From Acidimicrobiia bacterium (GTDB taxonomy: Bacteria > Actinomycetota > Acidimicrobiia > Spongiisociales > UBA11373): DNA of 64,000 bases. The stretch covers positions 1,469,469 through 1,533,468 of the forward strand of contig CP129495.1 of NCBI GenBank assembly GCA_030584185.1, in the 5' to 3' direction. The notes beneath the pieces were generated by a model, which had not been told where the DNA came from, did no database searches, and worked only from the letters and a program-made list of their open reading frames with translations. This document shows positions 11,414-62,101 of the stretch, piece after piece (positions within the stretch are counted from its first letter, which is position 1; every line of letters starts with the position of its first letter). Made by a program: the position numbers and the translations under genes.

Positions 11414-11499
11414 GGCTTTGGCTCCTGAATAGGCAATGTTCGGCGGCAGCCGGGGCTGCCACCACCGCGAGGCTATCACCTTCATGTGGCACTCTTCCC

Positions 11500-12396
11500 G
11501 TGGAAAGGTGCCTGATGAGCGGTGGGCTGCGGATCGAGGCCGGTTTGATGGCGGTAGTGCTGGCGGTCACCGACGATCGCCCGCGGGTGCTGACCGTGGT
11601 CTCCGATCCGCCTCGCCTGCCGGCAGGGCCCCTGGATCCGGCGTCCGACCGCACCCTGGAGCGGGCGCTGCGCCGATGGGTGGGCGAGACCACGGGATTG
11701 GACCTCGGGTATGTGGAGCAGCTGTACACCTACGGAGACGCCGGGCGCGGCGGTGAGAAGGACGTGCGCCAGTTGGCGATCGCCTACCTGGGGTTGGTCA
11801 GGGAGGGCCCGTTGGGCGGCCAGGCCGAGTGGCGTGACCTGTACGAGTTCCTCCCCTGGGAGGACCGCCGCCAGGAACCGGGCGGGGTGCCCCCGGCCGT
11901 GGGCACCTGGGTTATCGCTGCCGAGAACGAATCTCGGCGCCAGCGTGCGGCGATGGCTTGGGGAGGAGTCGGCTCCTGGGACCCCGAGCGGGCCCTGGAG
12001 CGCTACGAGCTGCTGTTCGAGGTCGGCGTGCTTCCCGAGGCGGGTGGTGAAGGCCTCGCCGGACTGCCGATGGGCCTCGACCATCGGCGGGTGCTCGCCC
12101 AGGCCCTGGGAAGGCTGCGCGGGAAGCTCCAGTACCGGCCGGTCGTGTTCGAGCTCATGCCTTCGGAGTTCACCTTGAGCGCCCTGCAGCGGGTGGTGGA
12201 GGCGGTGGTGGGGCGGCGCCTCCACACCGGGAACTTCCGCCGGCTCCTGGAGCGCACCGGGATGGTCGAGGGCCTGGGCCGGCGCGATGCCGGCACCGGG
12301 GGCCGCCCAGCCGAGCTCCACCGCTTCCGCAGGCAGGTGGTGTTGGAGCGGCCCGCTCCAGGGGTGGGCTTGCCGGGAATGCGCACCTCCGGATGA
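11500..12396 (+). CDS. nrtR: NrtR-like regulator of NAD metabolism (Nudix-related N-domain + C-terminal winged helix)
   Basis: The N-terminal part looks like a degenerate Nudix fold. The C-terminus (LQYRPVVFELMPSEFTLSALQRVVEAVVGRRLHTGNFRRLLERTGMVEGLG) is typical of the NrtR DNA-binding domain. The gene lies directly upstream of nadA-nadB-nadC. The start could be 11515 or 11548. Confidence 0.7.
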   Translation: MERCLMSGGLRIEAGLMAVVLAVTDDRPRVLTVVSDPPRLPAGPLDPASDRTLERALRRWVGETTGLDLGYVEQLYTYGDAGRGGEKDVRQLAIAYLGLVREGPLGGQAEWRDLYEFLPWEDRRQEPGGVPPAVGTWVIAAENESRRQRAAMAWGGVGSWDPERALERYELLFEVGVLPEAGGEGLAGLPMGLDHRRVLAQALGRLRGKLQYRPVVFELMPSEFTLSALQRVVEAVVGRRLHTGNFRRLLERTGMVEGLGRRDAGTGGRPAELHRFRRQVVLERPAPGVGLPGMRTSG

Positions 12397-12444
12397 ACGG
12401 TTGTCGATGGGCGATATACTCGCATTGAGCAAAAGGGAGCCCAC

Positions 12445-13473
12445 ATGACCATAGACCTCCTCCCGCTAGAGTCCCTCGACCAAGCCGAGCGGGATCGGCT
12501 CGACGAGCGCTACGCGACGCTCTCCGGAGTCGTGCCCGAGGCCGAGTGGGAGGCACAGGCTCCGTACGTCGCTGCCATCGAGCGCCTCAAGAAGGAACGC
12601 AACGCGGTGATCATCGCCCACAACTACCAGGTACCCGAGATCTTCCACGGGGCCGCCGACCTGGTGGGGGACTCGCTGGCCATGGCCTACCTCGCCGCCG
12701 AGACCGACGCCGAGGTCGTCGTGGTCGCCGGCGTCCACTTCATGGCCGAGACCGCCAAGTTGGTCAATCCAGACAAGACGATCCTCATCCCTTCCCTCGA
12801 GGCCGGGTGTTCCCTCGCCGAATCGATCACCGGCGCCGACGTGCGCCTGCTGCGTCAGAGGTTCCCAGGGGTTCCCGTGGTCACCTACGTGAACACCTCG
12901 GCCGAGGTGAAGGCGGAGTCCGACATCTGCTGCACCTCCTCCAACGCCGTCGAGGTGGTCGAATCGTTGGGTGTTCCCAGGGTGATCTTCCTCCCCGACG
13001 AGTTCCTGGGGAGGTATGTGGCGACCCAGACCGAGGTCGATGTGATCCTGTGGAAGGGTCACTGCATGGTGCACGAACGATTCACCCCGGAGGAGATCCG
13101 ACGATTCCGGGAGGCCTTCGCAGGAGAGATCGAGGTGCTGGCCCACCCCGAATGCCCGCCGGAAGTGCTCGCCGAGGCCGACTTCGTGGGCTCGACCGGT
13201 GGGCTGGTGAATCGGGTGGCGGCAACCAACCCGCCCCGAGTCCTGCTGATCACGGAGTGCTCGATGGCCTCCAACGTCGCGGTGCGGTTCCCCGACACCG
13301 AGTTCGTCCGGCCATGCAACCTGTGCCCCCACATGGGACAGATCACCCTGCGGCGAATCTACGAGTCGCTGGTCCACATGAAGCACGAGGTGGAGGTTCC
13401 GGCCGAGGTGGCAGGCCGGGCACGAGCCGCCGTGGAGAGGATGCTCGCCGTCGGTCGGGGTCGCGGTGGCTGA
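12445..13473 (+). CDS. nadA: Quinolinate synthase A
   Basis: Conserved NadA motifs ([29 protein letters not shown]) are present across a full-length 342-aa protein. Confidence 0.95.
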
Positions 13474-14977
13474 CCTGGACCGGGTGATCCGCACCGATGC
13501 GGTCGTCGTGGGGACCGGGGTCGCCGGCCTGACCACGGCGCTCTCCTTGCGGGGCTTTGATGTGGCCCTGGTGACCAAGACCGCGCTCGGGGGAGGCTCC
13601 ACCTGGTGGGCACAGGGTGGCATCGCCGCTGCGATATCCGCCGAGGACTCCCCCCGCCTCCACGCCGGCGACACCCTTGCCGTTGGCGCCGGCCTCAATG
13701 ATCCGGGCGCCGTCGCCCTGCTCGCCGAGAACGCCGTCGCCGGGATTCGCATGCTGCTGGAGCGGGGAGCCCGTTTCGATGTCGATGAAGCGGGCCGTCC
13801 CGTGCTGGGGCGGGAGGCGGGCCACTCGGTGCGCCGCATCCTGCACGCCGACGGCGATGCCACCGGGGCCGAGGTCAGCCGGGCCCTGGCCGCCGCCGCC
13901 GCAGGGGCCGATCACCTCGAGGTGCATGAGCACACCTTCGTCACCGACCTGGTCGTGGACGGGGGGAGAGTGGTGGGCGTCACCGCCAGAACCGGGGCCG
14001 GGGAGCGGATCGCCATCCTCGCCGGATCCGTCGTCCTCGCCACCGGGGGCATCGGCCGGGCCTACGCCAACACCACCAATCCGGTGGAGGTGACCGGCGA
14101 CGGGATGGCAATGGCCGCTCGGGCAGGCGCTCGGATAGGAGACGCCGAGTTCGTCCAGTTCCATCCGACCGCCCTCGATGCCGGGGTGGATCCCATGCCC
14201 CTGCTCACCGAGGCGCTTCGGGGCGAGGGGGCGACCCTGATCGACGACGCCGGGGAGCGGTTCATGCCAGGCGAGCATCCCGACGCCGAGCTGGCGCCGC
14301 GCGACGTGGTGGCCCGGGCGGTGTGGCGTCGGATCCGCTCCGGACGCAAGGTGTTCCTCGACGCCACCGCCGCCATCGGCGACGACCTTCCCGAGCGGTT
14401 CCCCACCGTGGATCGCCTGTGCCGGGCGGCAGGAATCGATCCGACCCGGGACCCGGTGCCGGTGGCACCTGCTGCCCACTACCACATGGGCGGGATCGCC
14501 GTTGGCCTGACCGGGCGCTCCACCCTGCCCGGGCTGTGGGCGGTGGGGGAGGCGAGCAGGACGGGTGTGCACGGCGCCAACCGGCTGGCGAGCAACTCCC
14601 TGCTCGAAGGCCTCGTCTTCGGCGAGTCGGTGGCCAGCGACATCGCCGGAGTCGGCGCATCCGCCTCTGTCCGAGTGGGCGAGATAGCCGATCCCGGCCC
14701 GAATCCGGAGCCGACCCCCGACGCCGTTGCCGCCGTTCGCGGGGCGATGTGGGAGGGGGTGGGACTGGTGCGCGATGCCGACTCGTTGCGCGGCGCCCTG
14801 GCGACGATCGGCCGGGTGACGGCCCGACTCCCTGCCGCCTCGGGCGAGGCCCGCAACCTGGCGGAGGTGGCTGCCATCGTGGCCGAGGCCGCCCTGGCAC
14901 GGACGGAGTCTCGCGGCGCCCACTTCCGGTCCGATCACCCGCATCCCGACGAGACCCACCTGGAAACCGCGCGATGA
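13466..14977 (+). CDS. nadB: L-aspartate oxidase
   Basis: It has an FAD-binding N-terminus ([14 protein letters not shown]), QGGIAAA, and the SRGAHFR motif near the C-terminus. It overlaps nadA by 8 nt. Confidence 0.95.
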
Positions 14978-28579: not shown

Positions 28580-28654
28580 TGGTCGGGACGGCCGGATTCG
28601 AACCGGCGACCTCATCGTCCCGAACGATGCGCGCTACCAAGCTGCGCCACGTCC
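28580..28654 (-). tRNA. tRNA-Pro (anticodon CGG)
   Basis: The minus-strand sequence is CGGGACGTGGCGCAGCTTGGTAGCGCATCGTTCGGGACGATGAGGTCGCCGGTTCGAATCCGGCCGTCCCGACCA. It has a 7-bp acceptor stem, a GGTTCGAATCC T-arm, a TTCGGGA anticodon loop (U33, CGG) and an encoded CCA. It closely resembles E. coli proK. By my manual fold the D-stem/anticodon-stem junction is 2 nt short. Confidence 0.8.
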
Positions 28655-28717
28655 CGTCGGGAACCGGGAGTGTAGTCGGCCCGGAATCGGGCACACCGGT
28701 GCGCGACCCGGGCTCCT

Positions 28718-31746: not shown

Positions 31747-32052
31747 GTGGGCGACGCGATCGCTGCCGCCGATCGGTCCTGGCAGGGCAAGGGTCTGTGT
31801 CGGGGCAACCACGCCTACCTGTTCTTTCCTCCGAGTACCGTCGAGCGCAAAGAGGACCGTGAGAGGCGGGAGCACAAGGCCAAGGCGATCTGTGGCGTGT
31901 GTCCGGTGACTTCCGAGTGCATGGAGTTCGCACTGGAGATTCGTGAGCCCTACGGCATCTGGGGCGGGCTCACGGAGACTGAGCGGCGCCAGGTGGCGAG
32001 TCGGCGGGCGGCGGCGGTAGGAGTCGGCGCAGATCTCCGCTACGGCGGGTGA
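31747..32052 (+). CDS. whiB: WhiB-family (Wbl) iron-sulfur transcription factor
   Basis: It has four Cys (C-x22-C-x2-C-x5-C), with CRG...ELFFP-like upstream and GIWGG downstream. AGGGAGG lies 8 nt before the GTG at 31747. The track ORF starts at 31708. Confidence 0.8.
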   Translation: MGDAIAAADRSWQGKGLCRGNHAYLFFPPSTVERKEDRERREHKAKAICGVCPVTSECMEFALEIREPYGIWGGLTETERRQVASRRAAAVGVGADLRYGG

Positions 32053-33778
32053 CCCCGGCCCGGTCCATCCACTCCAACAACGGGATGGCGTGCTTGCGGC
32101 TGATCTCGAGGGCGTCGCGGAAGTCGGCCACCGAGAACTCCTCGGGAAGGGCCTTCAGCGACTCGGTCAAGCCGGCGATGGTCTCGGGCAGGTAGAGAAG
32201 GTCCTCGGACACCGCCACCAGGTCACCCCTTCTCAGCAGGGCGTGGATCAGTTCCTCGTCGAGACCCAATTCGCCCCGGCGCGGCGGGGCGGCTCCCGCC
32301 GCCTCCAGGGTCTTTCTCACCGGCTGCCATGCGGCATCTGAGGACTCGTCGAGCCCGCCTCCGAACCCGACGAGGTGCACCACGGCACCGTTTCGGGCCA
32401 GCCGATCGGACCAGGTGACCACGGCCTCGAGGAGCGGAGCCGGGAGCCGCAGCGAGGTGGCCAGCGTGGGCAGCGGCATTCCCGGACGCAGCGGATTCTC
32501 CCGGTGGTACCGATCGAGACGGTCGACGGCGGCCGATTCGATCCGTCGCGCCTCATCGCCGGTGGTCGCCAGGTCGCCTGCCATCAGGGCGGGATCCGGA
32601 GTTCCACCCCCTGAGTCGGCGGCCAGCTCGCCGAGGGTTGCGCTCCGGCGGGTCGCCAGGAGGGCGTCCGCCCTTTCGTCGGGGGTGGCGGCGGTGCGTA
32701 GCCTCGGTAGCGACTCGATCACCTGACGCCGACGAGGGGGCGGTCGCGGGTCGAGCACCACGCCACCGGCGACGACAGCACGGCGCCCCACCTCGCGCAA
32801 CACGACGTGTTGTCCAGCCGCAACCGGTACCGGGGTGGCGAGGCGGAGTAGTGCTGCGCCCGGTGGGTCGTCGACCAGGGAGAGGCGAGCCGGATGCGAT
32901 CCACTGCCGATGTGGACGTGGAAGGACCCCCTGTCTCGAAGCGGTCCCGACGGACTGCGTACCAGCCGCAGGTCGACCACGATCCGATCCGACGAACGCC
33001 ACCGTCCCGGGAGGCCGAGCATGGCGCCGCGCGCCACCTCATCCCTTCCGACCCCGGCGAGGTTCACCGCCGCTCGGTTGCCGGGGGTGATCGAGGGCAT
33101 CGGCCGATCGTGGTTGTGCAGGCCGCGGACCCGCACCTCGCGTTCGTCCGGGTACAGCATCAGCACGTCGTCCACCGAGATGGTTCCCCCGACGAGGGTG
33201 CCGGTGACGACGGTTCCGGCGCCGCCGATGGTGAACGCCCGGTCCACCCACAGACGGGGTCGGTGGAGGTCGGGGGCGGGCGCCACCAGGCCGGCGAGGG
33301 CGGTGCGCAGAGCCTCCAGGCCTTCGCCGCGGGGAGCCGCCACCGGGAGGATGGCCACTCCCTCCAGGGAGGTTCCCGCCAGCTGCTCGGCCACTTCGAT
33401 CTCGGCCAACTCCAGGGTCTCGGAATCCACCAGGTCTGCTCGGGTGAGCGCCACCACGCCGCGGTCGACACCGATGAGGTCGAGGATCGCCAGGTGCTCC
33501 TCTGACTGGGGCATCCACCCCTCGTCGGCAGCCACCACGAACAGGGCGGCGTCCACACCTTCGACCCCGGCCAGCATGTTCTTGATGAAGCGCTCGTGAC
33601 CGGGGACGTCGATGAACCCGGTCTCGAGACCGCCTAGATGCGTCCAGGCAAAGCCGAGGTCGATGGTCATGCCCCGGCGGCGCTCCTCGGCCCAGCGGTC
33701 CGGATTCCTCCCGGTGAGGGCCTCGACCAGCGTCGACTTGCCGTGGTCCACGTGGCCCGCGGTGACGACTACCGGCAT
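31970..33778 (-). CDS. selB: Selenocysteine-specific elongation factor SelB
   Basis: It has a GTPase N-terminus (AGHVDHGKSTL, DVPGHERF), EF-Tu-like domains and a long C-terminal winged-helix extension. It is 602 aa. Confidence 0.9.
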   Translation of the reverse strand: MPVVVTAGHVDHGKSTLVEALTGRNPDRWAEERRRGMTIDLGFAWTHLGGLETGFIDVPGHERFIKNMLAGVEGVDAALFVVAADEGWMPQSEEHLAILDLIGVDRGVVALTRADLVDSETLELAEIEVAEQLAGTSLEGVAILPVAAPRGEGLEALRTALAGLVAPAPDLHRPRLWVDRAFTIGGAGTVVTGTLVGGTISVDDVLMLYPDEREVRVRGLHNHDRPMPSITPGNRAAVNLAGVGRDEVARGAMLGLPGRWRSSDRIVVDLRLVRSPSGPLRDRGSFHVHIGSGSHPARLSLVDDPPGAALLRLATPVPVAAGQHVVLREVGRRAVVAGGVVLDPRPPPRRRQVIESLPRLRTAATPDERADALLATRRSATLGELAADSGGGTPDPALMAGDLATTGDEARRIESAAVDRLDRYHRENPLRPGMPLPTLATSLRLPAPLLEAVVTWSDRLARNGAVVHLVGFGGGLDESSDAAWQPVRKTLEAAGAAPPRRGELGLDEELIHALLRRGDLVAVSEDLLYLPETIAGLTESLKALPEEFSVADFRDALEISRKHAIPLLEWMDRAGVTRRSGDLRRLLPPPPADSPPGAAQSP

Positions 33779-35094
33779 GCGGCGGCCAGGGCTCCGGCTA
33801 CGACGGCGTCATGTCGCGCGTCCACCGCCCGCAGGTCGATGAGCAGGCGGTCCCGATCGAGGCGTCCGACCACGGGAGGATCGGAGGCGAGCAGGCGGGC
33901 CCGCACCTCGGCGGCGTCGCCGGGTACGACGATCACCGGTCCCGGGATCCCCCGCCCCGGGGCCGAACCCGCACCGGGAAGCGACCGATCATCGGTGACC
34001 TCGCCGACTCCGGCAGTCGCGACCACGGCCCGGCATCGCCGGTCGAGCTCGTCGGCATGAATGGTCGCCATCGCCCAGAACGGGACCTCGCCTCCACGAC
34101 CGGCGGCGTAAAGGCTCAGCGTCGCCGCCAGCGATGCCAGCGCCTCCTTGGAGATGCGCACGGCGCGCGCCATCGGATGGCCGCTGATCCTTCGCACCAG
34201 GGCAGCCTTCCCGGCGATGATTCCGGCCTGCGGACCGCCGAGGAGCTTGTCGCCCGAGAACAACACCAGGTCGGCTCCCGCCTCGAGCGTCTGCCTGGCT
34301 GCAGGCTCGCCCTCCAGCCAGGCCGGCGGCGGGCCCTCCAGCCAGGGGAGGCGCTCGTCGAGAAGGCCGGACCCGATGTCGGCGACGAAGGGAACCTCCC
34401 GTGACCGGGCGAGGTCGGCCAGTGCCCCGTAGGACACCTCCTCGGTGAACCCCTCTACCCGGAAGTTGGACGGGTGCACCTTCAGGATCAGGGAGGCGTC
34501 GTCGAGGACCCGGGCGTAGTCGCGCAGCCGGGTGCGGTTGGTGGTGCCCACCTCGATGCTGCGGGCACCGGCGGTGGCGATGATCTCGGGTAGGCGGAAC
34601 GACCCGCCGATCTCGATCTGCTCCCCGCGAGACGACACGACGTTCCTGCCCCCGGCGAGAGCGGCCACGGTGAGCAGGAGCGCACCGGCGTTGTTGCCCA
34701 CGGCGAGTGCCGCCTCGCCCCCGGTGAGGGAGCGCAGCAGTGCCTCCACGTACTCGCCGCGACCCCCCCGCTCTCCCGTGTCGAGGTCCATCTCCAGGGC
34801 CGAGTACCCGCCGGCCGCCGCCGCGGCGGCAGCAGCCGCATCGGGATGAACCGGCGCCCGACCCAGATTGGTGTGGAGCAGCACGCCGGTGGCGTTGATC
34901 ACCGGTTCCGGCGCCGTGCGCCGTAGTCGCGCCATTTCGATTCGGGCGCGGTCCTCCGGATCGCCTTCGCCGTCGACCCTCCACTCGGCTATCGCCTGGC
35001 GCGCCACCTCGATCACGAGCCGTCGGGGAAGCGTGCCGTCGTCGATGACGCGAGCCAGGGCGTCCACCGAGGGTGGATGGGAGGACATGGGCAC
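33769..35094 (-). CDS. selA: L-seryl-tRNA(Sec) selenium transferase SelA
   Basis: It has the PLP-dependent SelA motifs (INATGVLLHTNLGRAP, FSGDKLLGGPQAG) and overlaps the selB start by 10 nt. Confidence 0.9.
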   Translation of the reverse strand: MPMSSHPPSVDALARVIDDGTLPRRLVIEVARQAIAEWRVDGEGDPEDRARIEMARLRRTAPEPVINATGVLLHTNLGRAPVHPDAAAAAAAAAGGYSALEMDLDTGERGGRGEYVEALLRSLTGGEAALAVGNNAGALLLTVAALAGGRNVVSSRGEQIEIGGSFRLPEIIATAGARSIEVGTTNRTRLRDYARVLDDASLILKVHPSNFRVEGFTEEVSYGALADLARSREVPFVADIGSGLLDERLPWLEGPPPAWLEGEPAARQTLEAGADLVLFSGDKLLGGPQAGIIAGKAALVRRISGHPMARAVRISKEALASLAATLSLYAAGRGGEVPFWAMATIHADELDRRCRAVVATAGVGEVTDDRSLPGAGSAPGRGIPGPVIVVPGDAAEVRARLLASDPPVVGRLDRDRLLIDLRAVDARHDAVVAGALAAACR

Positions 35095-35851
35095 AGCCTA
35101 CCGATGGCCCTATATTCGCCTGGTGGAACCGGCCGCCATCCCGGACGTCGTCCCCAGCCCAGCAGCAACGGTCATCGCACTGCGCAGGGTCTCGGGAGGG
35201 TTCGAGGTGCTCCTGGTGCGGCGGGCGCGAGAGGCCCGCTTCATGGGTGGGGCCCGAGTGTTTCCCGGTGGAGGGGTGGACGAGGTGGACCGAGGTCCGG
35301 CGGCTTCGGCTGCGGTGCGCTGGTCAGGTGATCCCGATGAGCTGCCGTGGAGGGCCGCGGCCCTGCGTGAGTTGGCCGAGGAGGCCGGGCTGCTCCTCAC
35401 AGATCGGCCGGTCTCGGTGGACGGCCTGTCCGGAGCCGGTCTCTATGACGCCATCGTCGCCGCCGGCGCCCGGTTCGATGCCGACACCCTGGTCTACCTG
35501 AGCAACTGGGTGACACCGCGCGGCCTGCCGAGAAGGTTCGACGCCCGCTTCTACGTGGTGGAAGTGCCTGCCGGGACGGTGGCGGTCTCGGACCGCGTCG
35601 AGGTGTACGACGCCGCCTGGGTGACGCCGGCTGCGGCCATCGCCGCCGCCGAGGAGGGCGCCTGGTACGTGGAGCACCCCACCCGGGTCCACCTGGAGAT
35701 GCTCGCCGCCGAGTCCGGCATCGATGAGGTGCTGGCCATGGCCCGCAGCCGGCCTGCCGAGCGGATCGAACCCCGCATCTACCTGGACGAGGCGGGCGAG
35801 TGGTCGATCGCCATGCCCGGCGACCCCGGATACGGCGAGGTCACGCCATGA
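35087..35851 (+). CDS. NUDIX hydrolase
   Basis: It has the internal start MGTAYRWPY and a Nudix box (RELAEEAGLLL). Its C-terminal half is unrelated to known Nudix families that I can name. Confidence 0.7.
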   Translation: MGTAYRWPYIRLVEPAAIPDVVPSPAATVIALRRVSGGFEVLLVRRAREARFMGGARVFPGGGVDEVDRGPAASAAVRWSGDPDELPWRAAALRELAEEAGLLLTDRPVSVDGLSGAGLYDAIVAAGARFDADTLVYLSNWVTPRGLPRRFDARFYVVEVPAGTVAVSDRVEVYDAAWVTPAAAIAAAEEGAWYVEHPTRVHLEMLAAESGIDEVLAMARSRPAERIEPRIYLDEAGEWSIAMPGDPGYGEVTP

Positions 35852-51913: not shown

Positions 51914-53242
51914 TCAGAGTATCGGCAGATACTCCTCGAGCTCGAACTTGCTCACATGGCGCTGATAGCGGTCCCACTCGGCTCGCTTGTTGCGCAGGAA
52001 CCACTCGAAGAGGTGCTCGCCGAGAGCCTCGGCGACCAGCTCCGATCTCTCCATGACGTCGAGGGCTCCGGCCAGGGTCTCGGGGATGCGCTCCACCCCG
52101 TTGGCCGTCAGTTCGTCGGCGGTGAGGGCGGAGACGTCGGAGGCGACTTCGGGGGGAAGGTCGTATCCGTTCTCGATCCCTGCCAGGCCGGCGGCGAGGA
52201 TCACCGAGAACGCCAGATACGGATTGCATGCCGGGTCGGGCGAGCGGTACTCGACGCGGGTCGAGGTCGGCTTCCCCTTCTTGGGCGTCGGAATGCGCAC
52301 CAGGGCGGACTGGTTGTTGCGGGCCCAGGTGATCCACACCGGGGCGTCGAAGCCGGTGACGAGACGCTTGTAGGAGTTGACCCACTGGTTGGTGACCGCC
52401 GTGATCTCCTGCCCATGACGCAACAGCCCGGCGATGAACCCCCGTGCCGCCTTGGAGAGCCCGTACTCGGCACCGCTCTCGTGGAAGGCGTTGCGGTCGC
52501 CTTCGAACAGCGACAGGTTGAGGTGGAGGCCGCTTCCGTCGAACTCCTGCAGTGGCTTGGGCATGAAGGTGGCGTAGATGCCGTGCTCCAGGGCCACCTC
52601 CTTGATGGCGAGGCGGGTGGTCATCAGGGCATCGGCCATGCTCAGGGCGTCGGTGTAGCGCAGGTCGATCTCGTGCTGGCTGGGTGCGACCTCGTGATGG
52701 GACGCCTCGACCGGGATCCCGAAGCTCTCCAGCGCCATGATGGTTCGGCGCCGGTACTCCTGGGCGACATCGAGCGGAGTGAGGTCGAAGTAGCCGCCCC
52801 GGTCGAGGGTCTTGGGGTCGGGGCCGGAGTCGGCGAAGTAGAAGTACTCGACCTCGGGGCCGACGTGGAACGAGTAGCCGAGGTCCGAGGCGCGCTTCAG
52901 GTTGCGCTTCAGCACCGACCTCGGATCACCCTCGAACGGCTCGCCGTCGGGAGTGGTCAGGTCGCAGAACATGCGGGCGACGCCGGCATGGTCGTCCCGC
53001 CAGGGGAGGATCTGAAAGGTGGTGGCGTCCGGGTGGGCCAGCATGTCGGCTTCCTGCACCCGGGAGAACCCGTCGATCGCCGAGCCGTCGAACTGCATCC
53101 CCTCGGCGAATGCGGTCTCCAGCTCCACGGGGGTGATGGCGAACGACTTGAGGTACCCGAGGACGTCGGTGAACCAGAGGCGGATGAAGCGGATGCCTCG
53201 TTCCTCCACCGTGCGCAGCACGTACTCCTGCTGTTTGGCCAT
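51914..53242 (-). CDS. glnA2: Glutamine synthetase, GlnA2-type
   Basis: It has the internal start MAKQQEY with a GGAGG RBS, and the GS beta-grasp and catalytic domains (FDGSAIDGF, GPEVEYFYF, NQWVNSYKRL). Confidence 0.9.
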   Translation of the reverse strand: MAKQQEYVLRTVEERGIRFIRLWFTDVLGYLKSFAITPVELETAFAEGMQFDGSAIDGFSRVQEADMLAHPDATTFQILPWRDDHAGVARMFCDLTTPDGEPFEGDPRSVLKRNLKRASDLGYSFHVGPEVEYFYFADSGPDPKTLDRGGYFDLTPLDVAQEYRRRTIMALESFGIPVEASHHEVAPSQHEIDLRYTDALSMADALMTTRLAIKEVALEHGIYATFMPKPLQEFDGSGLHLNLSLFEGDRNAFHESGAEYGLSKAARGFIAGLLRHGQEITAVTNQWVNSYKRLVTGFDAPVWITWARNNQSALVRIPTPKKGKPTSTRVEYRSPDPACNPYLAFSVILAAGLAGIENGYDLPPEVASDVSALTADELTANGVERIPETLAGALDVMERSELVAEALGEHLFEWFLRNKRAEWDRYQRHVSKFELEEYLPIL

Positions 53243-53307
53243 GGTCGTTCCTCCGGCGGGGCATGGTACGGACAAGGCGGCCCGGTGAGAAGAGGCCGCG
53301 GCGCCCG

Positions 53308-53362
53308 GAAACAGAGCGTTAACAATCCGGCAACTGCGCCGTAACCGCCCGTGGGTAGAAAC
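53308..53362. promoter_or_regulatory. Putative GlnR-box-like array: NNAAC pentamers phased every 11 bp in the glnA2/glnA divergent intergenic region
   Basis: GAAAC(53308)-n6-TTAAC(53319)-n6-GCAAC(53330)-n6-GTAAC(53341), with a further GAAAC at 53358. Compare the actinobacterial GlnR consensus gTnAc-n6-GaAAc. Confidence 0.4.
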
Positions 53363-53396
53363 GGTGCGACCGTTGAGATGTCGATTGGAGGAACCC

Positions 53397-54818
53397 ATGG
53401 CCGGAGCCAAGGACGTAGTGCGGCGGCTCGCCGACGGCGATTACGAGTTCGTCGATCTCAGGTTCTGCGACCTGCCCGGACAGGTGCAGCACTTCACGGT
53501 CCCCGCCTCGGAGGTCGACGAGGACGCCTTCGTGGAGGGCTTCGGCTTCGACGGCTCCTCCATCCGTGGGTTTCAGGAGATCCAGGAGTCCGACATGCTC
53601 CTGATCCCCGACCCCGACACCGCCGTGGACGACGCGTTTCGCGATCGGCGCACCCTGATCCTCTACTGCTGGGTGCGCGATCCGGTCACCGGCCAGCCCT
53701 ATGACAAGGATCCCCGCTACGTGGCCGCCAAGGCCGAGGCCTACCTCAAGGCGACCGGCCTCGCCGACGTCTCCTACTGGGGCCCTGAGGCCGAGTTCTA
53801 CATCTTCGACTCGGCCCGGTACCACCAGGATCAGAACTCGGCGTTCTACGAGGTCGACTCGGTGGAGGGGGCCTGGAACTCGGGCGTCGACGAGGAGGGG
53901 GGCAACCTGGCGTACAAGCCCCGCTACAAGGAGGGGTACTTCCCGGTGCCTCCCACCGACCACTTCCAGGATCTGCGGTCCGAGATGTCGGCGCGGTTGA
54001 AGGAGGCCGGGATCCATGTCGAGGTGCAGCACCACGAGGTGGGGACCGCCGGCCAGGCCGAGATCGACATCCGCTACGGCCCGCTGCTGCAGACCGCCGA
54101 CAAGGTGACCCTGTTCAAGTACATCGTGAAGAACACCGCCTGGCAGCACGGCAAGACGGTGACCTTCATGCCCAAGCCGATCTTCCAGGACAACGGCTCG
54201 GGTATGCACACCCATCAGAGCCTTTGGCTGGACGGCAAGCCGCTGTTCTACGACGAGAAGGGCTACGCCGGTCTCTCCGACATGGCCCGGTACTACATCG
54301 GAGGGCTTCTCCACCACGCTCCGGCCTTGCTGGCGCTGGCGGCGCCGACCACGAACTCCTACCGGCGGCTGGTGCCGGGGTACGAGGCCCCGGTGAACCT
54401 GGTGTACAGCCAGCGCAACCGGTCGGCGGCGATCCGGATCCCGGTGTACAGCCGCAAGCCGGCACTGAAGCGGCTCGAGTTCCGCTGCCCCGACCCATCC
54501 TGCAACCCGTACCTGGCCTTCGCCGCCATGCTGATGGCAGGCCTGGACGGGATCGCCAACAAGATGGACCCGGGGGCGCCTGTGGACAAGGACCTCTACG
54601 ACCTTCCTCCCGAGGAGATGGCAAGGGTTCCGATGGTTCCGGGGTCGCTGGAGGACGCCCTCGACGCCCTCGAAGCGGACCACGACTTCCTGCTGGTGGG
54701 CGACGTGTTCACCGAGGAGCTGATCGAGGACTGGATCGCCTACAAGCGGCGCCATGAGCTCGACGCCGTCCGGCTCCGCCCCCACCCCTGGGAGTTCATG
54801 CTCTACTACGACTGCTGA
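53397..54818 (+). CDS. glnA: Glutamine synthetase type I (GSI-beta), with an adenylylation-site Tyr
   Basis: It has the start MAGAKDVV with a GGAGG RBS and the canonical GSI motifs ([40 protein letters not shown]-like [10 protein letters not shown]). Confidence 0.95.
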
Positions 54819-55972: not shown

Positions 55973-56656
55973 CTAGCCCTCGGTCGTGCTGCTGCTGCTG
56001 GTGTCCCCGCCGGTCGTGCTGGTGGTCGAGGAGTCGACGGTGCCGCCCTGAGCGACGATTCGGAGGTCGGCGATGGCGTCGAGCACCTGCTGCACCTCGA
56101 CCTTGAACTCCTCCACGGCGGCACGCCGCTGGGTGCCATCGTCGGGGGCCTCCAACCCGAGGACGATGTCCCCCACCTTGGCCGACAGGTCGGACACCTG
56201 GACGATCAGGTCGACGTGGGCCTGAGCCAGGAGGGTGGGCACGCCGGCCACTTCGGTCACCGTGTTCTCCCACTCGTCCAACTGGGTCTGCAGCTCGAGG
56301 AACCTCGTGCGAGCCTGGGCGTAGGTGAGCCCGGTGTTGATCCGGTCCTCCCAGTCGGTGTTCACCTGGAGGACCTGGTCGCGGTATGCGGTCGCCTGGT
56401 TCTCGAACACGTCGACGGTGGCCATGAAGGCTGCGATGTCCGCCGGCAGCGTCGTGGTGGAGCTGGCGGAGTCGGTCGGGAACGGAGGCTCGGCATCGGT
56501 CGTGCCCGTCGGATCCGTTGCCGGTTCCAGCGAGTTCACGAAGGTGTAGGTGAGGATCACCATGGCCGCGATGATCAGCGGCAGGATCCATCGACCGTGT
56601 CTCGGGTCTTCGATCACCATTTCCGGGGAAACGGTAGTCGCCAGTCGGGCATGCAC
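55973..56656 (-). CDS. Hypothetical membrane-anchored protein with a Ser/Thr-rich C-terminus
   Basis: It has a single N-terminal TM (WILPLIIAAMVILTYTF), a coiled-coil-like middle and an STTSTTGGDTSSSSTT tail. I see no recognisable domain. Confidence 0.45.
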   Translation of the reverse strand: MHARLATTVSPEMVIEDPRHGRWILPLIIAAMVILTYTFVNSLEPATDPTGTTDAEPPFPTDSASSTTTLPADIAAFMATVDVFENQATAYRDQVLQVNTDWEDRINTGLTYAQARTRFLELQTQLDEWENTVTEVAGVPTLLAQAHVDLIVQVSDLSAKVGDIVLGLEAPDDGTQRRAAVEEFKVEVQQVLDAIADLRIVAQGGTVDSSTTSTTGGDTSSSSTTEG

Positions 56657-56679: not shown

Positions 56680-57411
56680 GTGACATCCATGGAGCTGCAG
56701 GGTGTCACCGCACTGGTCACCGGGGCCGGTCGTCGGGTCGGTAGGGCCATCGCACTGGGGCTCGCCGGCGCCGGCGCCAACCTGGTGGTCCACTACAACC
56801 GCTCCGCCGACGAGGCGGAGGAGGTGGCCGGCGAGATCCGCAGCCTGGGGGTGGAGGCGACCACCGTAGGCGGCGATCTCGGCGGCGAGGCGGCGGCGGT
56901 GATGGCGGGCGCAGGCCCGCTGGCACCGGTGCGGGTGCTGGTGAACAGCGCCGCATCGTTCCCTGACGACACGCTCATGGACGTGGATCGAGACGGATGG
57001 GACCGGACCTTGGCGGTGAACCTGACCGGTCCCGTGTTCCTCACCCAGGCGTTCGCCGCTGCACTGCCTTCCGACGCCGAGGGGGCGGTGGTCAACATCA
57101 CCGACTGGCGGACCTCTCGGCCTTATCGGGATCACTTCTCCTACACGGTGGCCAAGGGGGCGCTGGACACCTTCACCCTGGCTGCGGCAGAGGCGCTCGC
57201 CCCCCGCATCCGGGTGAACGCCGTCGCCCTGGGTGCCATCCTGCCTCCCCCCGGGCGCGACTCGGCCTACCTCAGGGAACTGGCCCGGGAGATCCCGGTG
57301 CAGCGGGTGGGGGGCACCGAGCCGGTGGTGGCGGCGGTGCTGGCGCTGCTCGCCAACGACTTCATCACCGGGGAGATCCTGCGGGTCGATGGCGGGGCAC
57401 ATCTCAGGTAG
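56680..57411 (+). CDS. SDR-family oxidoreductase (pteridine reductase/FolM-like by context)
   Basis: It has the Rossmann motif TGAGRRVG and the catalytic YxxxK (YTVAKGA). It is immediately upstream of folB-folK-folE. Confidence 0.8.
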   Translation: MTSMELQGVTALVTGAGRRVGRAIALGLAGAGANLVVHYNRSADEAEEVAGEIRSLGVEATTVGGDLGGEAAAVMAGAGPLAPVRVLVNSAASFPDDTLMDVDRDGWDRTLAVNLTGPVFLTQAFAAALPSDAEGAVVNITDWRTSRPYRDHFSYTVAKGALDTFTLAAAEALAPRIRVNAVALGAILPPPGRDSAYLRELAREIPVQRVGGTEPVVAAVLALLANDFITGEILRVDGGAHLR

Positions 57412-57449: not shown

Positions 57450-57809
57450 ATGGACCGTATCGTGATCCGGGACCTGCTGGTGCGCGGCATCGTGGGGATC
57501 AACCCGGAGGAGCGCAAGAACCGCCAGGACATCGTGGTCAACCTGACCATGTGGGCCGACATCGCCGACGCCGCCCGCAGCGACGACATCGCCGACGCGG
57601 TCAACTACCGGACGGTGGCGAAGCGGATCCTGGAGCACGTCGAGCAGGGATCGCCGATGCTGGTGGAACGTCTCGCCTCGGAGATCGCCGGGATCTGCTT
57701 CGACATGGACGAACGGGTGGCCGAGGTGGAGGTGTCGGTGGAGAAGCCGGGCGCCCTGCGCTTCGCCCGCTCGGTGGGGGTGGTGTTGCGCCGGGAGCGT
57801 CCCCAATGA
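57450..57809 (+). CDS. folB: 7,8-dihydroneopterin aldolase
   Basis: It has the internal start [26 protein letters not shown]. It is 119 aa and its stop overlaps the folK start (ATGA). Confidence 0.9.
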
Positions 57810-58906
57810 CGCGGGCCGTGATCGCCCTGGGGAGCAACGTGGACCCGGACCGCAATCTGCCGGTGGCGCTGGCACGGCTCCGGCATCGCCGCGACCTAGT
57901 GGTCCTGGACCAGAGTCCCTGCTACCGCTCCGAGGCGGTGGGGAGTGACGGTCCCGACTTCATGAACGCCGCAGCCCTGGTGGAGACTCCGCTCGATCCG
58001 GTGCAGCTGCGTTCGGTGCTGCGCTCAATCGAGGCGGAGATGGGCCGGGAGCGCACCGAGGATCGCAACGCCCCCCGTCCCATCGACCTCGACATCGTCC
58101 TCTACGAGGGGTTCGAGGGGGAGATCGAGGGCACCGAGATCCCTGATCCCGACTTGGCCACCCTGGCCCATGTGGCGGTGCCGGCCGCCGATGTCGCTCC
58201 CGACTGGGAATACCCGGGGCCGGGTTCGACCTTGAAAGCCATCTCGGAGAGGTTCCGTCGAGAGATCGAGGTGTGCATGACAACCGGGATCGTCCGCATC
58301 AACGGCCGCTACGCCACCGAGCAGGGGATGGAGGCGACCTCCAACGAGGTCTACGACCCCGAGATGGAGGAGATCGTCGGCCGGATGCTGATCCAGCTCG
58401 GCGAGGACCCGGAGCGCGAGGGCCTGGTGCGCACCCCGTTGCGGGTGGCCAAGGCCATGGACTTCCTCACCAGCGGCTACGTCGGGTCCCTGGAGGAGGT
58501 GGTGAACAACGCCATCTTCGAGAGCGACTCCGACGAGATGGTCCTGGTCAAGGACGTCGAGTTCTACTCGCTGTGCGAGCACCACATGCTGCCGTTCTTC
58601 GGCAGGGCGCACGTCGCCTACATGCCGAACAAGCGGATCATCGGGCTGAGCAAGATCGCCCGGATCGTGGACCTGTTCGCCCGGCGCCTGCAGGTTCAGG
58701 AGCGTCTCACCAATCAGGTGGCCGACGCCATCGAGGAGGTGCTCGACCCCCATGGTGTGGCGGTGGTGATGGAGGGGAGCCACTTCTGCATGATGATGCG
58801 CGGTGTCCAGAAGCAGGGTTCTTCGATGGTGACCTCGGCGATGCGGGGCGGGTTCAAGACCAACCCGCTGTCGCGTTCGGAGTTCATGGGCCTGATCAAG
58901 GCCTGA
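57806..58906 (+). CDS. folK-folE: Bifunctional fusion: 6-hydroxymethyl-7,8-dihydropterin pyrophosphokinase (FolK) + GTP cyclohydrolase I (FolE)
   Basis: It is a single in-frame ORF with no stop. The N-terminal ~158 aa is HPPK ([12 protein letters not shown]...PIDLDIVLY...DWEYPGPG). The C-terminal ~200 aa is GTP-CH-I ([12 protein letters not shown]...CEHHMLPF...[10 protein letters not shown]). I confirmed the junction codon by codon around 58250-58290. Confidence 0.8.
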
Positions 58907-59040: not shown

Positions 59041-59895
59041 ATGCCGGGTATCGACGTCGACGAGCGCGAGGACATGGAGCACGTTCCCTGGGCCGATCTG
59101 ATGGCCCAGGTGGAGCCGGAGGATCGGCGTCGCAAGGCGCTGTATCAGGCCGCCGGGTTTCTGGGGGCGCTGGTGGTGGGGGTGATCGTGGCCCGTTCCT
59201 GGTGGGCGGCCCCGGTGCCGCCGGTTCCGATCGCCCCGGGGACCACGATCGTGCCTGCCGAGGGGTCGGGGGGCACCACGCCGACCCTTCCCCTGTACAG
59301 CGAGGCGGACCTGATGGCCGACCCGCCCGACCCCTCAGCCCGGGCCGCCATCACCAGGGCCGAGTGGTTCGTCACCGACTTCTTCACTGCGGATCTGGAA
59401 CCTTCGGGGTCGGCGGAGGTGCGTGCCGCCCTGCCGGGCTGGGTGACCGCCGATCTGGCCCAGGAGGGGTCGGACTCGGTGTCCTACGTGGAGTGGGCGA
59501 GGGCGTTTCGCGTCGAGGAGGCAGGTGGGGGCCTGTACCGGGTGGCGGTGGCGTTCCGTGCGTTGGGGGCACCTCCGGATCGGGGGTTCACCCGTCTTCC
59601 GGTGCGGGCTGTGGAGGTGCTGGTGGCCGTGGGTGAGGACGGGGGCACCACGGTGGTCGACCTGCCCGAGCCGGTGGCGTTGCCGCCGGGCCCGGAGCCG
59701 GAGGAGCCGGGTTGGGTGGAGGGGTCCCCTCCGCAGTCGGTGGTGGATGCGGTGTCGGCCAGGGCTTCGGTGTGGGGGAGCGAGCCGCGGATCCTGTCGG
59801 CGGTGCATCTCGATGGCGATTGGCGGGTGGTGGTGTCGGTGGCCGACGCCGTGGGCCTGCGCTGGCCGCTGGCGATGCGGGTGGCCGAGGGGTGA
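59041..59895 (+). CDS. Hypothetical membrane-anchored/secreted protein
   Basis: It is a 284-aa ORF with one TM near residue 40 (ALYQAAGFLGALVVGVIV) and no recognisable motif. The GC3 pattern is coding-like. Confidence 0.45.
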   Translation: MPGIDVDEREDMEHVPWADLMAQVEPEDRRRKALYQAAGFLGALVVGVIVARSWWAAPVPPVPIAPGTTIVPAEGSGGTTPTLPLYSEADLMADPPDPSARAAITRAEWFVTDFFTADLEPSGSAEVRAALPGWVTADLAQEGSDSVSYVEWARAFRVEEAGGGLYRVAVAFRALGAPPDRGFTRLPVRAVEVLVAVGEDGGTTVVDLPEPVALPPGPEPEEPGWVEGSPPQSVVDAVSARASVWGSEPRILSAVHLDGDWRVVVSVADAVGLRWPLAMRVAEG

Positions 59896-59900
59896 GGCCC

Positions 59901-60401
59901 TCACACGAACAGCTGCACGTCGGCATCGGCGGCGAAGTCGAGGAAGGCGGCCGCACCTGCGATCTCGCACCCCGGGATCAGGTCCTCCGCCTCGACCCCC
60001 ATCACCCCCATGGTCGTGGCGCAGGCGAAGAAGCGAACCCCGAGGCCCTGGGCCATCTCGATGAACTCGGGTACCTGCGGCATCCGGGACCGCCGCATCC
60101 ACCGCTTGAGCATCCCGGTGGCGCCGGCCGTGGCCCCGGGGAGCGCTCCGAGAAGGGTCGGTACCCGGATGGGGCCCGCCGGGTTCCCCACCGCAGCCGC
60201 CTTCAGCCGGCGATGCCGCTTGGCGTGCAGGATGTCGAGGCCGTGGAAGGTGAAGTACACCCCTGCCTCCCATCCCATGCTGGCGGCCGTGGTGGCCAGG
60301 ATCAGCGGGGGGTAGGCCTGGTCGAGGGTGCCCTTCGACGCCACCAGGGCTATCCGTCTGCGACCGACCGGGCCGCCTTCGCCTGCGGGCTGGTCGACCA
60401 T
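59901..60401 (-). CDS. DsrE/DsrF-like sulfur-relay family protein
   Basis: It has the internal start MVDQPAGEGG, and RIALVASKGTLDQAYPPLILATTAASMG...FFACATTM matches the DsrE_2 family. Its start overlaps the TusA stop (TGATG). Confidence 0.7.
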   Translation of the reverse strand: MVDQPAGEGGPVGRRRIALVASKGTLDQAYPPLILATTAASMGWEAGVYFTFHGLDILHAKRHRRLKAAAVGNPAGPIRVPTLLGALPGATAGATGMLKRWMRRSRMPQVPEFIEMAQGLGVRFFACATTMGVMGVEAEDLIPGCEIAGAAAFLDFAADADVQLFV

Positions 60402-60634
60402 CACGCAGCCCCCTTCTCGATGCGGAACACCTGGGTGTCGCCCCGGTCCTCCGCCGAGACCAGGCGGTCGCCGCGCTGTCGCGCCATCGCCGGGATGTCC
60501 TCGAGGGCCCCGGGGTCGGTGGTGATCAGCTCCAGCACCTCGCCGGGGCTCATCCGGCCGAGCGCCAGTCCCGCCTTGTACACCGGCAGCGGGCACAGCA
60601 GCCCGGAGGCGTCCAGGGTCGTGGTTTCGGTCAT
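60401..60634 (-). CDS. tusA: TusA-like sulfurtransferase (SirA/YedF/YeeD)
   Basis: It is a 77-aa ORF with LDASGLLCPLPVYKAGLAL, containing the CPxP active-site motif. Confidence 0.85.
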   Translation of the reverse strand: MTETTTLDASGLLCPLPVYKAGLALGRMSPGEVLELITTDPGALEDIPAMARQRGDRLVSAEDRGDTQVFRIEKGAA

Positions 60635-60648
60635 GCCTCTCTCTCCTC

Positions 60649-61614
60649 TCATGCGGGGAGACCCTCGTCGCCGAGGAGCTCCGCGAAGTAGCTCGTGTAC
60701 TTGAGGCCGGAGTCGGGGGAGACCCCGACGGCCACCCCCTTGCCGGCCACCCGGGTGGCGGCATGGACGATCGCCCCGGTGGACGGCCCCACCATCAGCC
60801 CCTGCTCCCGCCACAGGCGCAAGGTGGTGGAGTAGGCGGCCTCGTCGTCGACCAGGATCACCTCGTCGACCAGGCTGCGGTCCAGGATCCCGGGCTCGCT
60901 CGCCTCGGCGAAGCTCTTCAGCCCGGGGAGCCGGTGACCCTTCTGCGGCTCTATGGCCACCACCCGGATCGATGGGTCCTGCTCCTTCAGGTACCGCCCC
61001 ACCCCGGTGATGGTCCCGCAGGTTCCGAAGCCGGCCAGGAACACCCGCACCTCGCCTTCGGTCTGCCGCCAGATCTCCGGGCCGGTGGTCTCGTAGTGGG
61101 CGCGCACGTTGTCCGGGTTCTCGTACTGGTTGGGCATGGCGAAACGGGTCCCGCCCTCGGATGCGGCCAGTGACCTGGCCAGGGCGATCGCCCCGTCCTT
61201 GGGATGGTCGACCGGGCACAGGTCGTCGGGCGTGGCCCACACCTCGGCGCCGAGCATCCGCAGCATGATCTGCTTCTCCATCGGCACCCCGTCGGGGATG
61301 GTCACCGTCAGGCGGATTCCCCGCCGCGCCGCCAGGGCGGCCAGAGCGATGGCGGTGTTGCCCGAGGACGGCTCCACCAGCTCCCGACCCGCCAGCTCGC
61401 CACGCTCCTCCATCCCCCGGAGCATGTAGGCGGCGGTGCGGTCCTTGATCGATCCGAACGGGCTCATCCACTCCAGCTTGAGGTGCAGGTCGAGCGTCGC
61501 GTCGATCGGCACCCGCACCAGGGGCGTCGGCTCGTCCCGGCCGGGGAGCAGATCCTCGATCGTCTCGTATCTTCGGACCGTTCGGTCCGTTCCCAACGCC
61601 GTGGTGGTGGTCAT
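60649..61614 (-). CDS. PLP-dependent cysteine synthase family protein (CysM/CysK-like)
   Basis: It has the PLP-lysine motif SIKDR, the glycine loop GTCGTITG, and a fold-type II pattern throughout. It is 321 aa. An RBS GGAGAGG precedes the ATG. Confidence 0.9.
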   Translation of the reverse strand: MTTTTALGTDRTVRRYETIEDLLPGRDEPTPLVRVPIDATLDLHLKLEWMSPFGSIKDRTAAYMLRGMEERGELAGRELVEPSSGNTAIALAALAARRGIRLTVTIPDGVPMEKQIMLRMLGAEVWATPDDLCPVDHPKDGAIALARSLAASEGGTRFAMPNQYENPDNVRAHYETTGPEIWRQTEGEVRVFLAGFGTCGTITGVGRYLKEQDPSIRVVAIEPQKGHRLPGLKSFAEASEPGILDRSLVDEVILVDDEAAYSTTLRLWREQGLMVGPSTGAIVHAATRVAGKGVAVGVSPDSGLKYTSYFAELLGDEGLPA

Positions 61615-61628
61615 GTACTTCCTCTCCA

Positions 61629-61666
61629 GAAAAGAAAAAACCCGCTCCGGTTGCCCGGTGCGGGTT
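61629..61666 (-). terminator. Strong intrinsic terminator hairpin in the 5' leader of the cysM-like gene (candidate attenuator/riboswitch expression platform)
   Basis: The minus-strand RNA reads AACCCGCACCGG-GCAA-CCGGAGCGGGUU, an 11-bp stem with a GNRA loop, followed by UUUUUUCUUUUCU. It ends ~25 nt before the start codon, leaving room only for the RBS. Confidence 0.5.
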
Positions 61667-61852
61667 GGATTCGGCTCTGTCGTCCCGTTCTAGGTGGACA
61701 CGCCCTTCCGCCCGTCACCGGGGTGGCAACAGGCGCAACAGCAGACGGCTGCGGTGAGGTTCGGCATGTTCACGGAGGGCAACTGTAGGGGGTGCCGGCG
61801 CGTGGTCAAGGGGGATTCCTGGTGGCGGGCTAGCCTCGCCGCGGTGCGCCGC

Positions 61853-62101
61853 TCACCCGAAGGTGGTTTCGAGGATTCCCGTCACCTCGGGCACGATCTC
61901 GTCCCAGAACGCCTCGGGCATCTTGGAGACGGTCACGAAGTCGGCAGTCATGAACACCGAGGCGACGCCGGGCACGGAGAGCAGCGGTCCGGCCACGGGG
62001 TCGTCCGACTGTCCGACGAACGACCTGGGGGCGTCGAACATGGTGCCCACGGTGAACTTGAGGGCGTTCGGGTTGGGCGTCTGGCTGATGATCACCGGCA
62101 T
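61853..62101 (-). CDS. Nfu/NifU N-terminal-domain-like small protein
   Basis: It is an 82-aa ORF, and MPVIISQTPNPNALKF...ASVFMTADFVTVSK matches the Nfu_N domain pattern. Confidence 0.7.
   Translation of the reverse strand: MPVIISQTPNPNALKFTVGTMFDAPRSFVGQSDDPVAGPLLSVPGVASVFMTADFVTVSKMPEAFWDEIVPEVTGILETTFG

Follow-up and report, generated by a model that had tools for sequence, protein, structure and literature searches.

We examined a 64,000-nucleotide (nt) stretch of the genome of an Acidimicrobiia bacterium (GenBank contig CP129495.1, positions 1,469,469 to 1,533,468; hereafter, the window), in which the folKE gene joins domains for 6-hydroxymethyl-7,8-dihydropterin pyrophosphokinase (HPPK, or FolK) and GTP cyclohydrolase I (GCYH-I, or FolE). 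The gene lies on the forward strand at 57806..58906, from an ATG at 57806 to a TGA at 58904-58906, and it closes an operon of three genes, after a gene for a FolM-like short-chain dehydrogenase/reductase (SDR) and folB. A first-pass annotation, made from the sequence alone, had called a single FolK-FolE polypeptide of 366 amino acids (aa) and had met no stop when reading the junction codon by codon. Both statements held, in that the open reading frame (ORF) contains 0 internal stops across its 366 codons and the junction peptide quoted in that annotation was reproduced exactly. Furthermore, the GC content of third codon positions was 0.82 to 1.0 along the entire ORF, junction included.

Profile hidden Markov models confirmed two complete catalytic domains, with both the Pfam and the NCBIfam models matched over their full length and above curated cut-offs. 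The HPPK domain spans aa 1 to 157 (57806..58276, forward strand); Pfam HPPK (PF01288) matched aa 5 to 132 over model positions 1 to 116 of 116 with 94.6 bits (cut-off, 25.7; E = 6.6e-27), and NCBIfam TIGR01498 (folK) scored 90.7 against a cut-off of 54.1. The FolE domain spans approximately aa 181 to 366 (58346..58903, forward strand); Pfam GTP_cyclohydroI matched aa 188 to 364 over model positions 2 to 178 of 179 with 252.6 bits (E = 1.9e-75), and NCBIfam TIGR00063 (folE) scored 255.5 against a cut-off of 181.6. A Pfam match to QueF inside the FolE domain (25 bits, under the cut-off) was set aside as a reflection of the shared tunnel fold and not an extra domain. Between the two domains is a flexible linker of about 20 aa. 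An AlphaFold2 model of FolKE built with 59 homologues had a mean predicted local distance difference test (pLDDT) score of 83.6, with block means of 82 to 97 for aa 1 to 150 and mostly 66 to 97 for aa 180 to 366, while the linker at aa 159 to 173 and a loop at aa 329 to 336 both fell below 50. As modeled, FolKE would consist of two autonomous folds on a flexible linker.

The first-pass annotation had allowed that a sequencing error might have removed a stop codon or a frameshift between two separate genes. Such an artefact would require only one sequencing or assembly indel to delete the folK stop, as the fused and unfused states lie 1 nt apart, and one relative contig does have the unfused form. 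However, four independent SRA assemblies reproduced the junction byte for byte. Two of these (L001 and L004; L numbers denote fetched genomic loci, and P numbers denote listed homologous proteins) match the window without a difference over 16.2 and 11.3 kb, respectively, and the other two (L002 and L003) come from strains with about 1% overall divergence from it, carrying 5 and 8 folKE changes, all of which are synonymous. The exact FolKE protein was indexed in 54 blocks of a public assembly collection. The 366-aa protein also had more than 120 distinct fused homologues of 58 to 100% identity, drawn from NCBI, ENA, JGI, and Logan sources. All 120 of those listed carried both Pfam domains; 119 were 359 to 376 aa long, and the one exception was 348 aa. 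Scans of contigs from metagenome and genome collections with the full protein mostly matched loci with FolE only, as the patterns obtained by back-translation came from the FolE half, which is highly conserved, and added only about 15 fused loci. In these 15 further loci, mostly from different metagenome-assembled genomes (MAGs), linker length varied yet the frame was always kept. The more distant fused genes came from Acidimicrobiia MAGs (54 to 58% identity) and from one Chloroflexota MAG (41%). Thus, assembly support at the junction and the survey of related taxa both bear out the fusion, and the sequencing-error alternative, which we regard as vanishingly unlikely, is discarded on the strength of the four assemblies and the more than 120 fused homologues.

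The junction itself holds what looks like a relic folE start (58268..58279, forward strand): a GAGG at 58268-58271, a 5-nt spacer, and an ATG at 58277-58279 that encodes M158 and is followed by an A, giving ATGA. Position 158 is the first residue past the HPPK domain; 109 of the 120 homologues have Met there and 9 have Val, with variable linker columns on either side. An ATG or GTG at this position with purine-rich sequence upstream was present in 8 of 12 loci. These features indicate that the start signals of a once independent, translationally coupled folE survive here; because of them, we suggest that the fusion arose from a coupled folK-folE pair with an ATGA overlap.

The unfused relative contig (L169; JGI Ga0302046_10023607, positions 406-1511) encodes a 158-aa FolK and a 210-aa FolE separately, and its folE starts at the ATG equivalent to M158, overlapping the folK TGA as ATGA. 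Compared with its nearest fused relative (L170, positions 6001-7107; protein P0020), it has 84% aa and 82% nt identity, and the 1,107-nt alignment of the two contains exactly one gap, of 1 nt, about 7 nt upstream of the ATG. The fused P0020 form was also seen on another contig, L171. A single 1-nt indel therefore appears sufficient to convert one gene into two or two into one. In a neighbor-joining tree, L169 nested in the fused clade beside fused P0020, and a reading of L169 as the ancestral unfused state, with a recent fusion, was withdrawn because the tree places it inside that clade. With both states in nature, the locus offers a clean, datable case of genes with an ATGA overlap fusing or splitting by a 1-nt indel.

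Given these signals, the gene could yield two products, the full-length fusion and a free FolE made by internal initiation at M158 (58277) from the GAGG at 58268-58271. This idea is compatible with a functional fusion, and it would account for a Met or Val codon held amid a variable linker, for an ATG or GTG located 5 to 12 nt after a GGAG- or GAGG-like sequence in the window, L005, L006, L007, L008, and L016, and for the use of that very codon as the folE start in L169. However, the deeper-branching fused relatives L010, L011, and L089 have no start codon there, the codons of an acidic, Gly-rich linker (GAG and GGA) make Shine-Dalgarno-like strings unaided, and the Met may be conserved simply through common descent, the sequences being at least 58% identical to begin with. 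We consider internal initiation unlikely.

In the FolE half, the motifs C257-E258-H259-H260, H326-x-C328, Q298-E299, and S282-K283 were all present and were invariant or nearly so in a 59-sequence alignment of homologues (A1), in which C257, H259, H260, H326, and C328, comprising the Cys/His/Cys zinc ligands and the catalytic histidines, were fully invariant. The FolE half matched Thermus thermophilus GCYH-I (1wm9) with 235 bits. It was 45 to 60% identical to the best solved structures and 53 to 60% identical to the T. thermophilus and mammalian enzymes, and Foldseek comparison of the modeled half with GCYH-I structures (1wm9 and 1is7) gave target TM-scores of 0.82 to 0.87. Thus, FolKE shares its zinc ligands, its catalytic His, Gln, and Glu residues, and its fold with characterized GTP cyclohydrolases I (1wm9, mammalian GCH1, and Mycobacterium tuberculosis 9p8z). 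It differs from them in having an N-terminal HPPK and a pre-domain segment at aa 168 to 186 (58307..58363) outside the Pfam model. The segment reads R-Y-A-x-E-x2-M-E-A-x3-E-V-Y-D-P-E, comes after the linker, and precedes the Pfam FolE model; Y169 was invariant, and A170, E172, M175, E176, E181, and D184 were at least 90% conserved, as was E188 just past it. Because the stand-alone L169 FolE also has the segment at its N terminus, it is a part of FolE and does not form part of the linker.

The HPPK half aligned end to end with the Yersinia pestis and Escherichia coli structures (1dy3, 8sif, and 2qx0; E = 5e-19 to 2e-15) and contained the PROSITE-type motif R-x-A-P-R-x2-D-L-D-I-V. Residues G9, S10, N11, N54, E76, R81, R83, R91, D94, and D96, which correspond in order to E. 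coli G8, S9, N10, N55, E77, R82, R84, R92, D95, and D97, were invariant in A1 and conserved in 118 to 120 of the 120 fused homologues; D94, D96, R81, R91, E76, and N54 were invariant in all 120. Of the E. coli residues, we take D95 and D97 to be the Mg2+ ligands, R82 and R92 to be catalytic, and E77 and N55 to belong to the core. This half is thus like E. coli FolK in its full-length alignment, its motif, and its catalytic core. It differs at several residues through which the E. coli enzyme binds the pterin or the phosphates of ATP (H115, Y116, R110, R121, F123, and W89, of which H115, Y116, and R121 are ATP ligands). Here, these were replaced by D114, P115, G109, L120, H122, and N88, respectively, and across the fused homologues the R121 site was variable, the F123 site was His or Tyr, and the W89 site was Phe, Asn, or Tyr.

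The typical PHP...R.F motif reads IPDPD...AH in this protein. Of the nearest 150 cluster representatives of HPPK (at 50% identity), 83 had the IPDPD pattern, most of them stand-alone proteins of 160 to 180 aa, and FolB-HPPK and HPPK-Nudix fusions had it as well. Because so many of these representatives share the pattern, the substitutions, which recur clade-wide, are a trait of the clade and not a sign of decay, and we treat the HPPK domain as a presumably active enzyme of a divergent, uncharacterized clade. That clade is large, and because HPPK is an antibacterial target, its ATP-site differences could merit a structure.

Among HPPK proteins P0121 to P0270, the fusion partners of the IPDPD clade were unusual. 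They included an EgtB-like combination of DinB_2 and FGE-sulfatase domains (P0154, 619 aa) and DUF488 (P0150), two fusions with no obvious folate logic, as well as a GNAT acetyltransferase (P0248) and Nudix (P0250). Another member, P0169 (722 aa), had a long unannotated C terminus.

Upstream of folKE, the first-pass annotation had placed a FolM- or pteridine-reductase-like SDR and folB, and both identifications were upheld. The SDR gene occupies 56689..57411 on the forward strand (240 aa from its ATG; an alternative GTG lies at 56680). Its product matched Pfam adh_short and adh_short_C2 and scored under the NCBIfam equivalog cut-offs, with 222.5 against 281 for PRK09134, 176 against 288 for the pteridine reductase PRK09135, and 100.8 against 249 for the dihydromonapterin reductase PRK06483. 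The best solved structure was 5tgd, a "FolM alternative dihydrofolate reductase," with 154 bits, compared with about 100 bits for FabG enzymes. The protein carries TGAGRRVG, which fits TGX3RXG, together with the YX3K pair as Y-T-V-A-K. TGX3RXG in place of TGX3GXG is diagnostic of FolM/PTR1 (PMC1971073).

The folB gene (57450..57809, forward strand) encodes a 119-aa protein of the dihydroneopterin aldolase family (Pfam FolB, 109.7 bits), and its TGA at 57807-57809 overlaps the folKE ATG as ATGA. The protein passed TIGR00525 (folB) with 87 against 72.15 and failed the FolX model PRK11245 with 110.5 against 152. Among solved structures, the FolX epimerases 4aey (86 bits) and 1b9l (76 bits) came closest, by a small margin over aldolases (73 and 67 bits). 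Residues E21, Y53, E73, and K99, which we take to be the catalytic residues common to the aldolase and FolX families, were all present. In P0144, P0156, and P0174 (checked with Pfam for P0144), HPPKs of this clade carry a FolB of the same type as their fusion partner, and the window's FolB was 60% identical to the FolB half of P0144. This fusion argues that FolB feeds HPPK and so would act as an aldolase. The order of conserved hypothetical gene, SDR gene, folB, and folKE was kept in L005, L006, L008, L009, L010, L012, L089, and L170, and the folB-folKE pair alone was kept in L007, L011, L016, and L088. In the Acidimicrobiia MAGs, folB and folKE overlapped by stop and start, usually with the SDR gene there; the Chloroflexota MAG had folB-folKE.

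The first-pass annotation had also remarked that the cluster lacks folP. A tblastn search with E. coli FolP gave no match at E < 1e-4 in the window or in any of the 167 fetched loci. Moreover, no Pterin_bind, dihydrofolate reductase, or Mur_ligase (FolC) domain was found by Pfam scans of about 46 candidate ORFs in the window or in precomputed Pfam annotation of the identical contig L001, which covered 47.8 to 64 kb. Thus, the absence stood for the whole window and for the neighborhoods of relatives, but its interest did not: E. coli folP, which sits between glmM and ftsH, is also apart from the other fol genes, and a pterin-branch cluster without folP is therefore unremarkable. The folP, folC, and dihydrofolate reductase genes are presumed to be encoded elsewhere in the genome.

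The makeup of the operon raises the question of whether its product is folate at all. With an altered or inactive HPPK, the SDR, the FolB-like protein, and FolE could form a FolM-FolX-FolE-type route to a reduced non-folate pterin, such as tetrahydromonapterin. FolX and FolM turn the FolE product into that pterin in E. coli and Pseudomonas (PMC3405516), and the genes of this proteobacterial route resemble the present cluster in setting a TGX3RXG-type SDR gene beside folB/folX-family and folE genes; clustering of folM-like genes with pterin-branch genes is described in PMC1971073. The FolB-like protein scored best against FolX structures and the FolX NCBIfam model, the SDR is FolM-like in its motif and in its best structure (5tgd), HPPK lacks equivalents of H115, Y116, and R121, and no folP lies near the operon. 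Against this, the HPPK core (two Asp, three Arg, Glu, Asn, and GSN) was invariant or nearly invariant in 120 homologues, which suggests that its chemistry was retained. In addition, the IPDPD changes were common to 83 of the 150 nearest HPPK representatives, stand-alone HPPKs among them, and the clade includes FolB-HPPK and HPPK-Nudix fusions, whose partners are typical of the folate pathway. FolB cleared the cut-off of the folB equivalog and not that of FolX, and FolX has been reported only from Gammaproteobacteria (PMC3405516). The cluster also differs from the proteobacterial route in containing an HPPK and in its actinobacterial lineage. We consider a non-folate route very unlikely.

Taken together, these results make it highly probable that the locus encodes a genuine bifunctional FolKE, HPPK plus GTP cyclohydrolase I, as the last gene of a pterin-branch operon and derived from a coupled folK-folE pair. 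In such an operon, the FolE domain would convert GTP to 7,8-dihydroneopterin triphosphate, which enzymes encoded outside the operon would dephosphorylate. FolB would cleave dihydroneopterin to hydroxymethyl-dihydropterin, and the HPPK domain would pyrophosphorylate 6-hydroxymethyl-7,8-dihydropterin, the product being passed to a dihydropteroate synthase whose gene would lie outside the cluster. The FolM-like SDR may reduce dihydropterins or serve as an alternative dihydrofolate reductase. Because the fused steps are not consecutive, the benefit of the fusion would probably be that HPPK is coexpressed at a fixed 1:1 ratio with the enzyme of the first committed step, and not substrate channeling. 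Since GTP cyclohydrolase I is a decamer, we would expect a FolE core that is probably decorated with flexibly tethered, peripheral HPPK domains.

Several points weigh against this proposal. The missing E. coli ATP and pterin contacts mean that the kinetics or nucleotide handling of the HPPK domain may differ from those of the E. coli enzyme, and the location of folP elsewhere in the genome is an assumption. The sole unfused relative, L169, is a single contig that, nested as it is within the fused clade, probably represents a secondary split or an indel error rather than an ancestor. We claim no direction for the fusion or fission event, only that 1 nt interconverts the two states.

A more far-reaching reading is that the FolM-like SDR, the FolX-like FolB, and the IPDPD HPPK-FolE fusion of Acidimicrobiia form a distinct pterin module. 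HPPK might then use another phosphate-binding mode or donor, the SDR might be the sole dihydrofolate or dihydropterin reductase or a tetrahydropterin maker, and the internal start might tune the ratio of FolE to HPPK. We think that this is quite unlikely and favor FolKE as a bifunctional enzyme of the folate pathway.

The first-pass annotation had not known this order of fused domains as a common one. The novelty that this implied was not supported, since HPPK followed by GCYH-I is the order of the known Lactococcus lactis folKE and all 120 listed homologues carry both domains. The L. lactis gene encodes a bifunctional HPPK and GTP cyclohydrolase I (PMC10764224, PMC6153639, and PMC1971073). 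A folKEPQC cluster is named in PMC1971073, and the supplement of that paper gives protein id 1188 twice for L. lactis Il1403 within the consecutive run 1187 to 1191, which we read as its GCYH-I and HPPK columns. Overexpression of L. lactis folKE raised extracellular folate approximately 10-fold (PMC10764224 and PMC6153639), which agrees with reading the fusion as a means of stoichiometric coexpression.

In both organisms, HPPK is N-terminal and GCYH-I is C-terminal in one polypeptide, and folB is immediately upstream. At about 350 aa, the L. lactis protein is also close in length to the one described here. However, its host belongs to the Bacillota, whereas the window comes from the Actinomycetota (Acidimicrobiia), and its cluster reads folB-folKE-folP-folQ-folC, whereas here folP, folQ, and folC are outside the cluster, a FolM-like SDR is inside it, and the HPPK half is of the IPDPD clade. 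The names of the nearest MAGs, together with a WhiB gene and a mycothiol-type MDMPI domain in the window, point to this actinobacterial class. The locus is thus another, uncharacterized folKE in another phylum, with a different cluster makeup and a divergent HPPK clade, and its architecture was already known.

The main value of the locus is for annotation, in addition to the 1-nt fusion or fission that it exemplifies and the unstudied IPDPD clade. Database names for the fused proteins (e.g., P0070, P0075, P0004, and JGI entries) were "GTP cyclohydrolase I FolE" and "GTP cyclohydrolase I/IA," with one "hypothetical protein." Because these public names omit the HPPK half, metabolic reconstructions that rely on names could wrongly record a folK gap in MAGs of Acidimicrobiia and Chloroflexota and so predict folate auxotrophy.

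On either side of the operon are genes for predicted membrane proteins. Divergent from the SDR gene, at 55973..56620 on the reverse strand, lies a conserved hypothetical gene (215 aa as called, or more if read from a GTG at 56656) whose product had no Pfam match and one predicted transmembrane helix, at aa 21 to 43 of the 227-aa form. Its homologues keep both place and orientation beside the SDR gene in L005, L006, L008, L009, L010, L012, and L089. The hypothetical membrane protein that had been noted after folKE was also found, as a 284-aa single-pass protein at 59041..59895 on the forward strand with one predicted transmembrane helix (aa 32 to 59) and no Pfam or NCBIfam family match. Its gene begins after a 134-nt gap, and its homologues lie downstream at variable distances in relatives, with three unrelated genes intervening in L006 and no homologue detected in L008. 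The gene is loosely linked and not demonstrably part of the operon.

An Rfam search (E <= 0.1) found no element around the operon and only one tRNA in the whole window, so that a tetrahydrofolate riboswitch or similar element is unsupported. A promoter and terminator scan found nothing, a result that is uninformative for an actinobacterium with 69% GC.

Several other gene groups were noted in the window. Upstream of the fol operon are divergent glutamine synthetase paralogues (Gln-synt_N plus Gln-synt_C) at 51917..53440 on the reverse strand and 53364..54818 on the forward strand, beside a Trans_reg_C regulator, and the pairing was kept upstream of the operon in L001 to L005 and L170. Just downstream of the operon, at 59901..62101 on the reverse strand, genes for a DsrE-like protein, a TusA sulfur carrier, a cysteine synthase-like PALP protein, and a small Nfu_N protein stand in a row, an arrangement that suggests sulfur transfer in protein-bound form; linkage of the Nfu_N gene to the fol region was retained in L005, L006, and L169. 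Genes for SelB (the elongation factor specific for selenocysteine) and SelA (selenocysteine synthase) are adjacent at 31973..35097 on the reverse strand. No tRNA-Sec was found in the 64-kb window by ARAGORN or Rfam, the sole tRNA being tRNA-Pro(CGG) at 28580..28656. A gene for an NrtR-type (Nudix-related) winged-helix regulator precedes those for NadA and NadB at 11290..14974 on the forward strand, a typical NAD de novo synthesis regulon that is unrelated to folKE.

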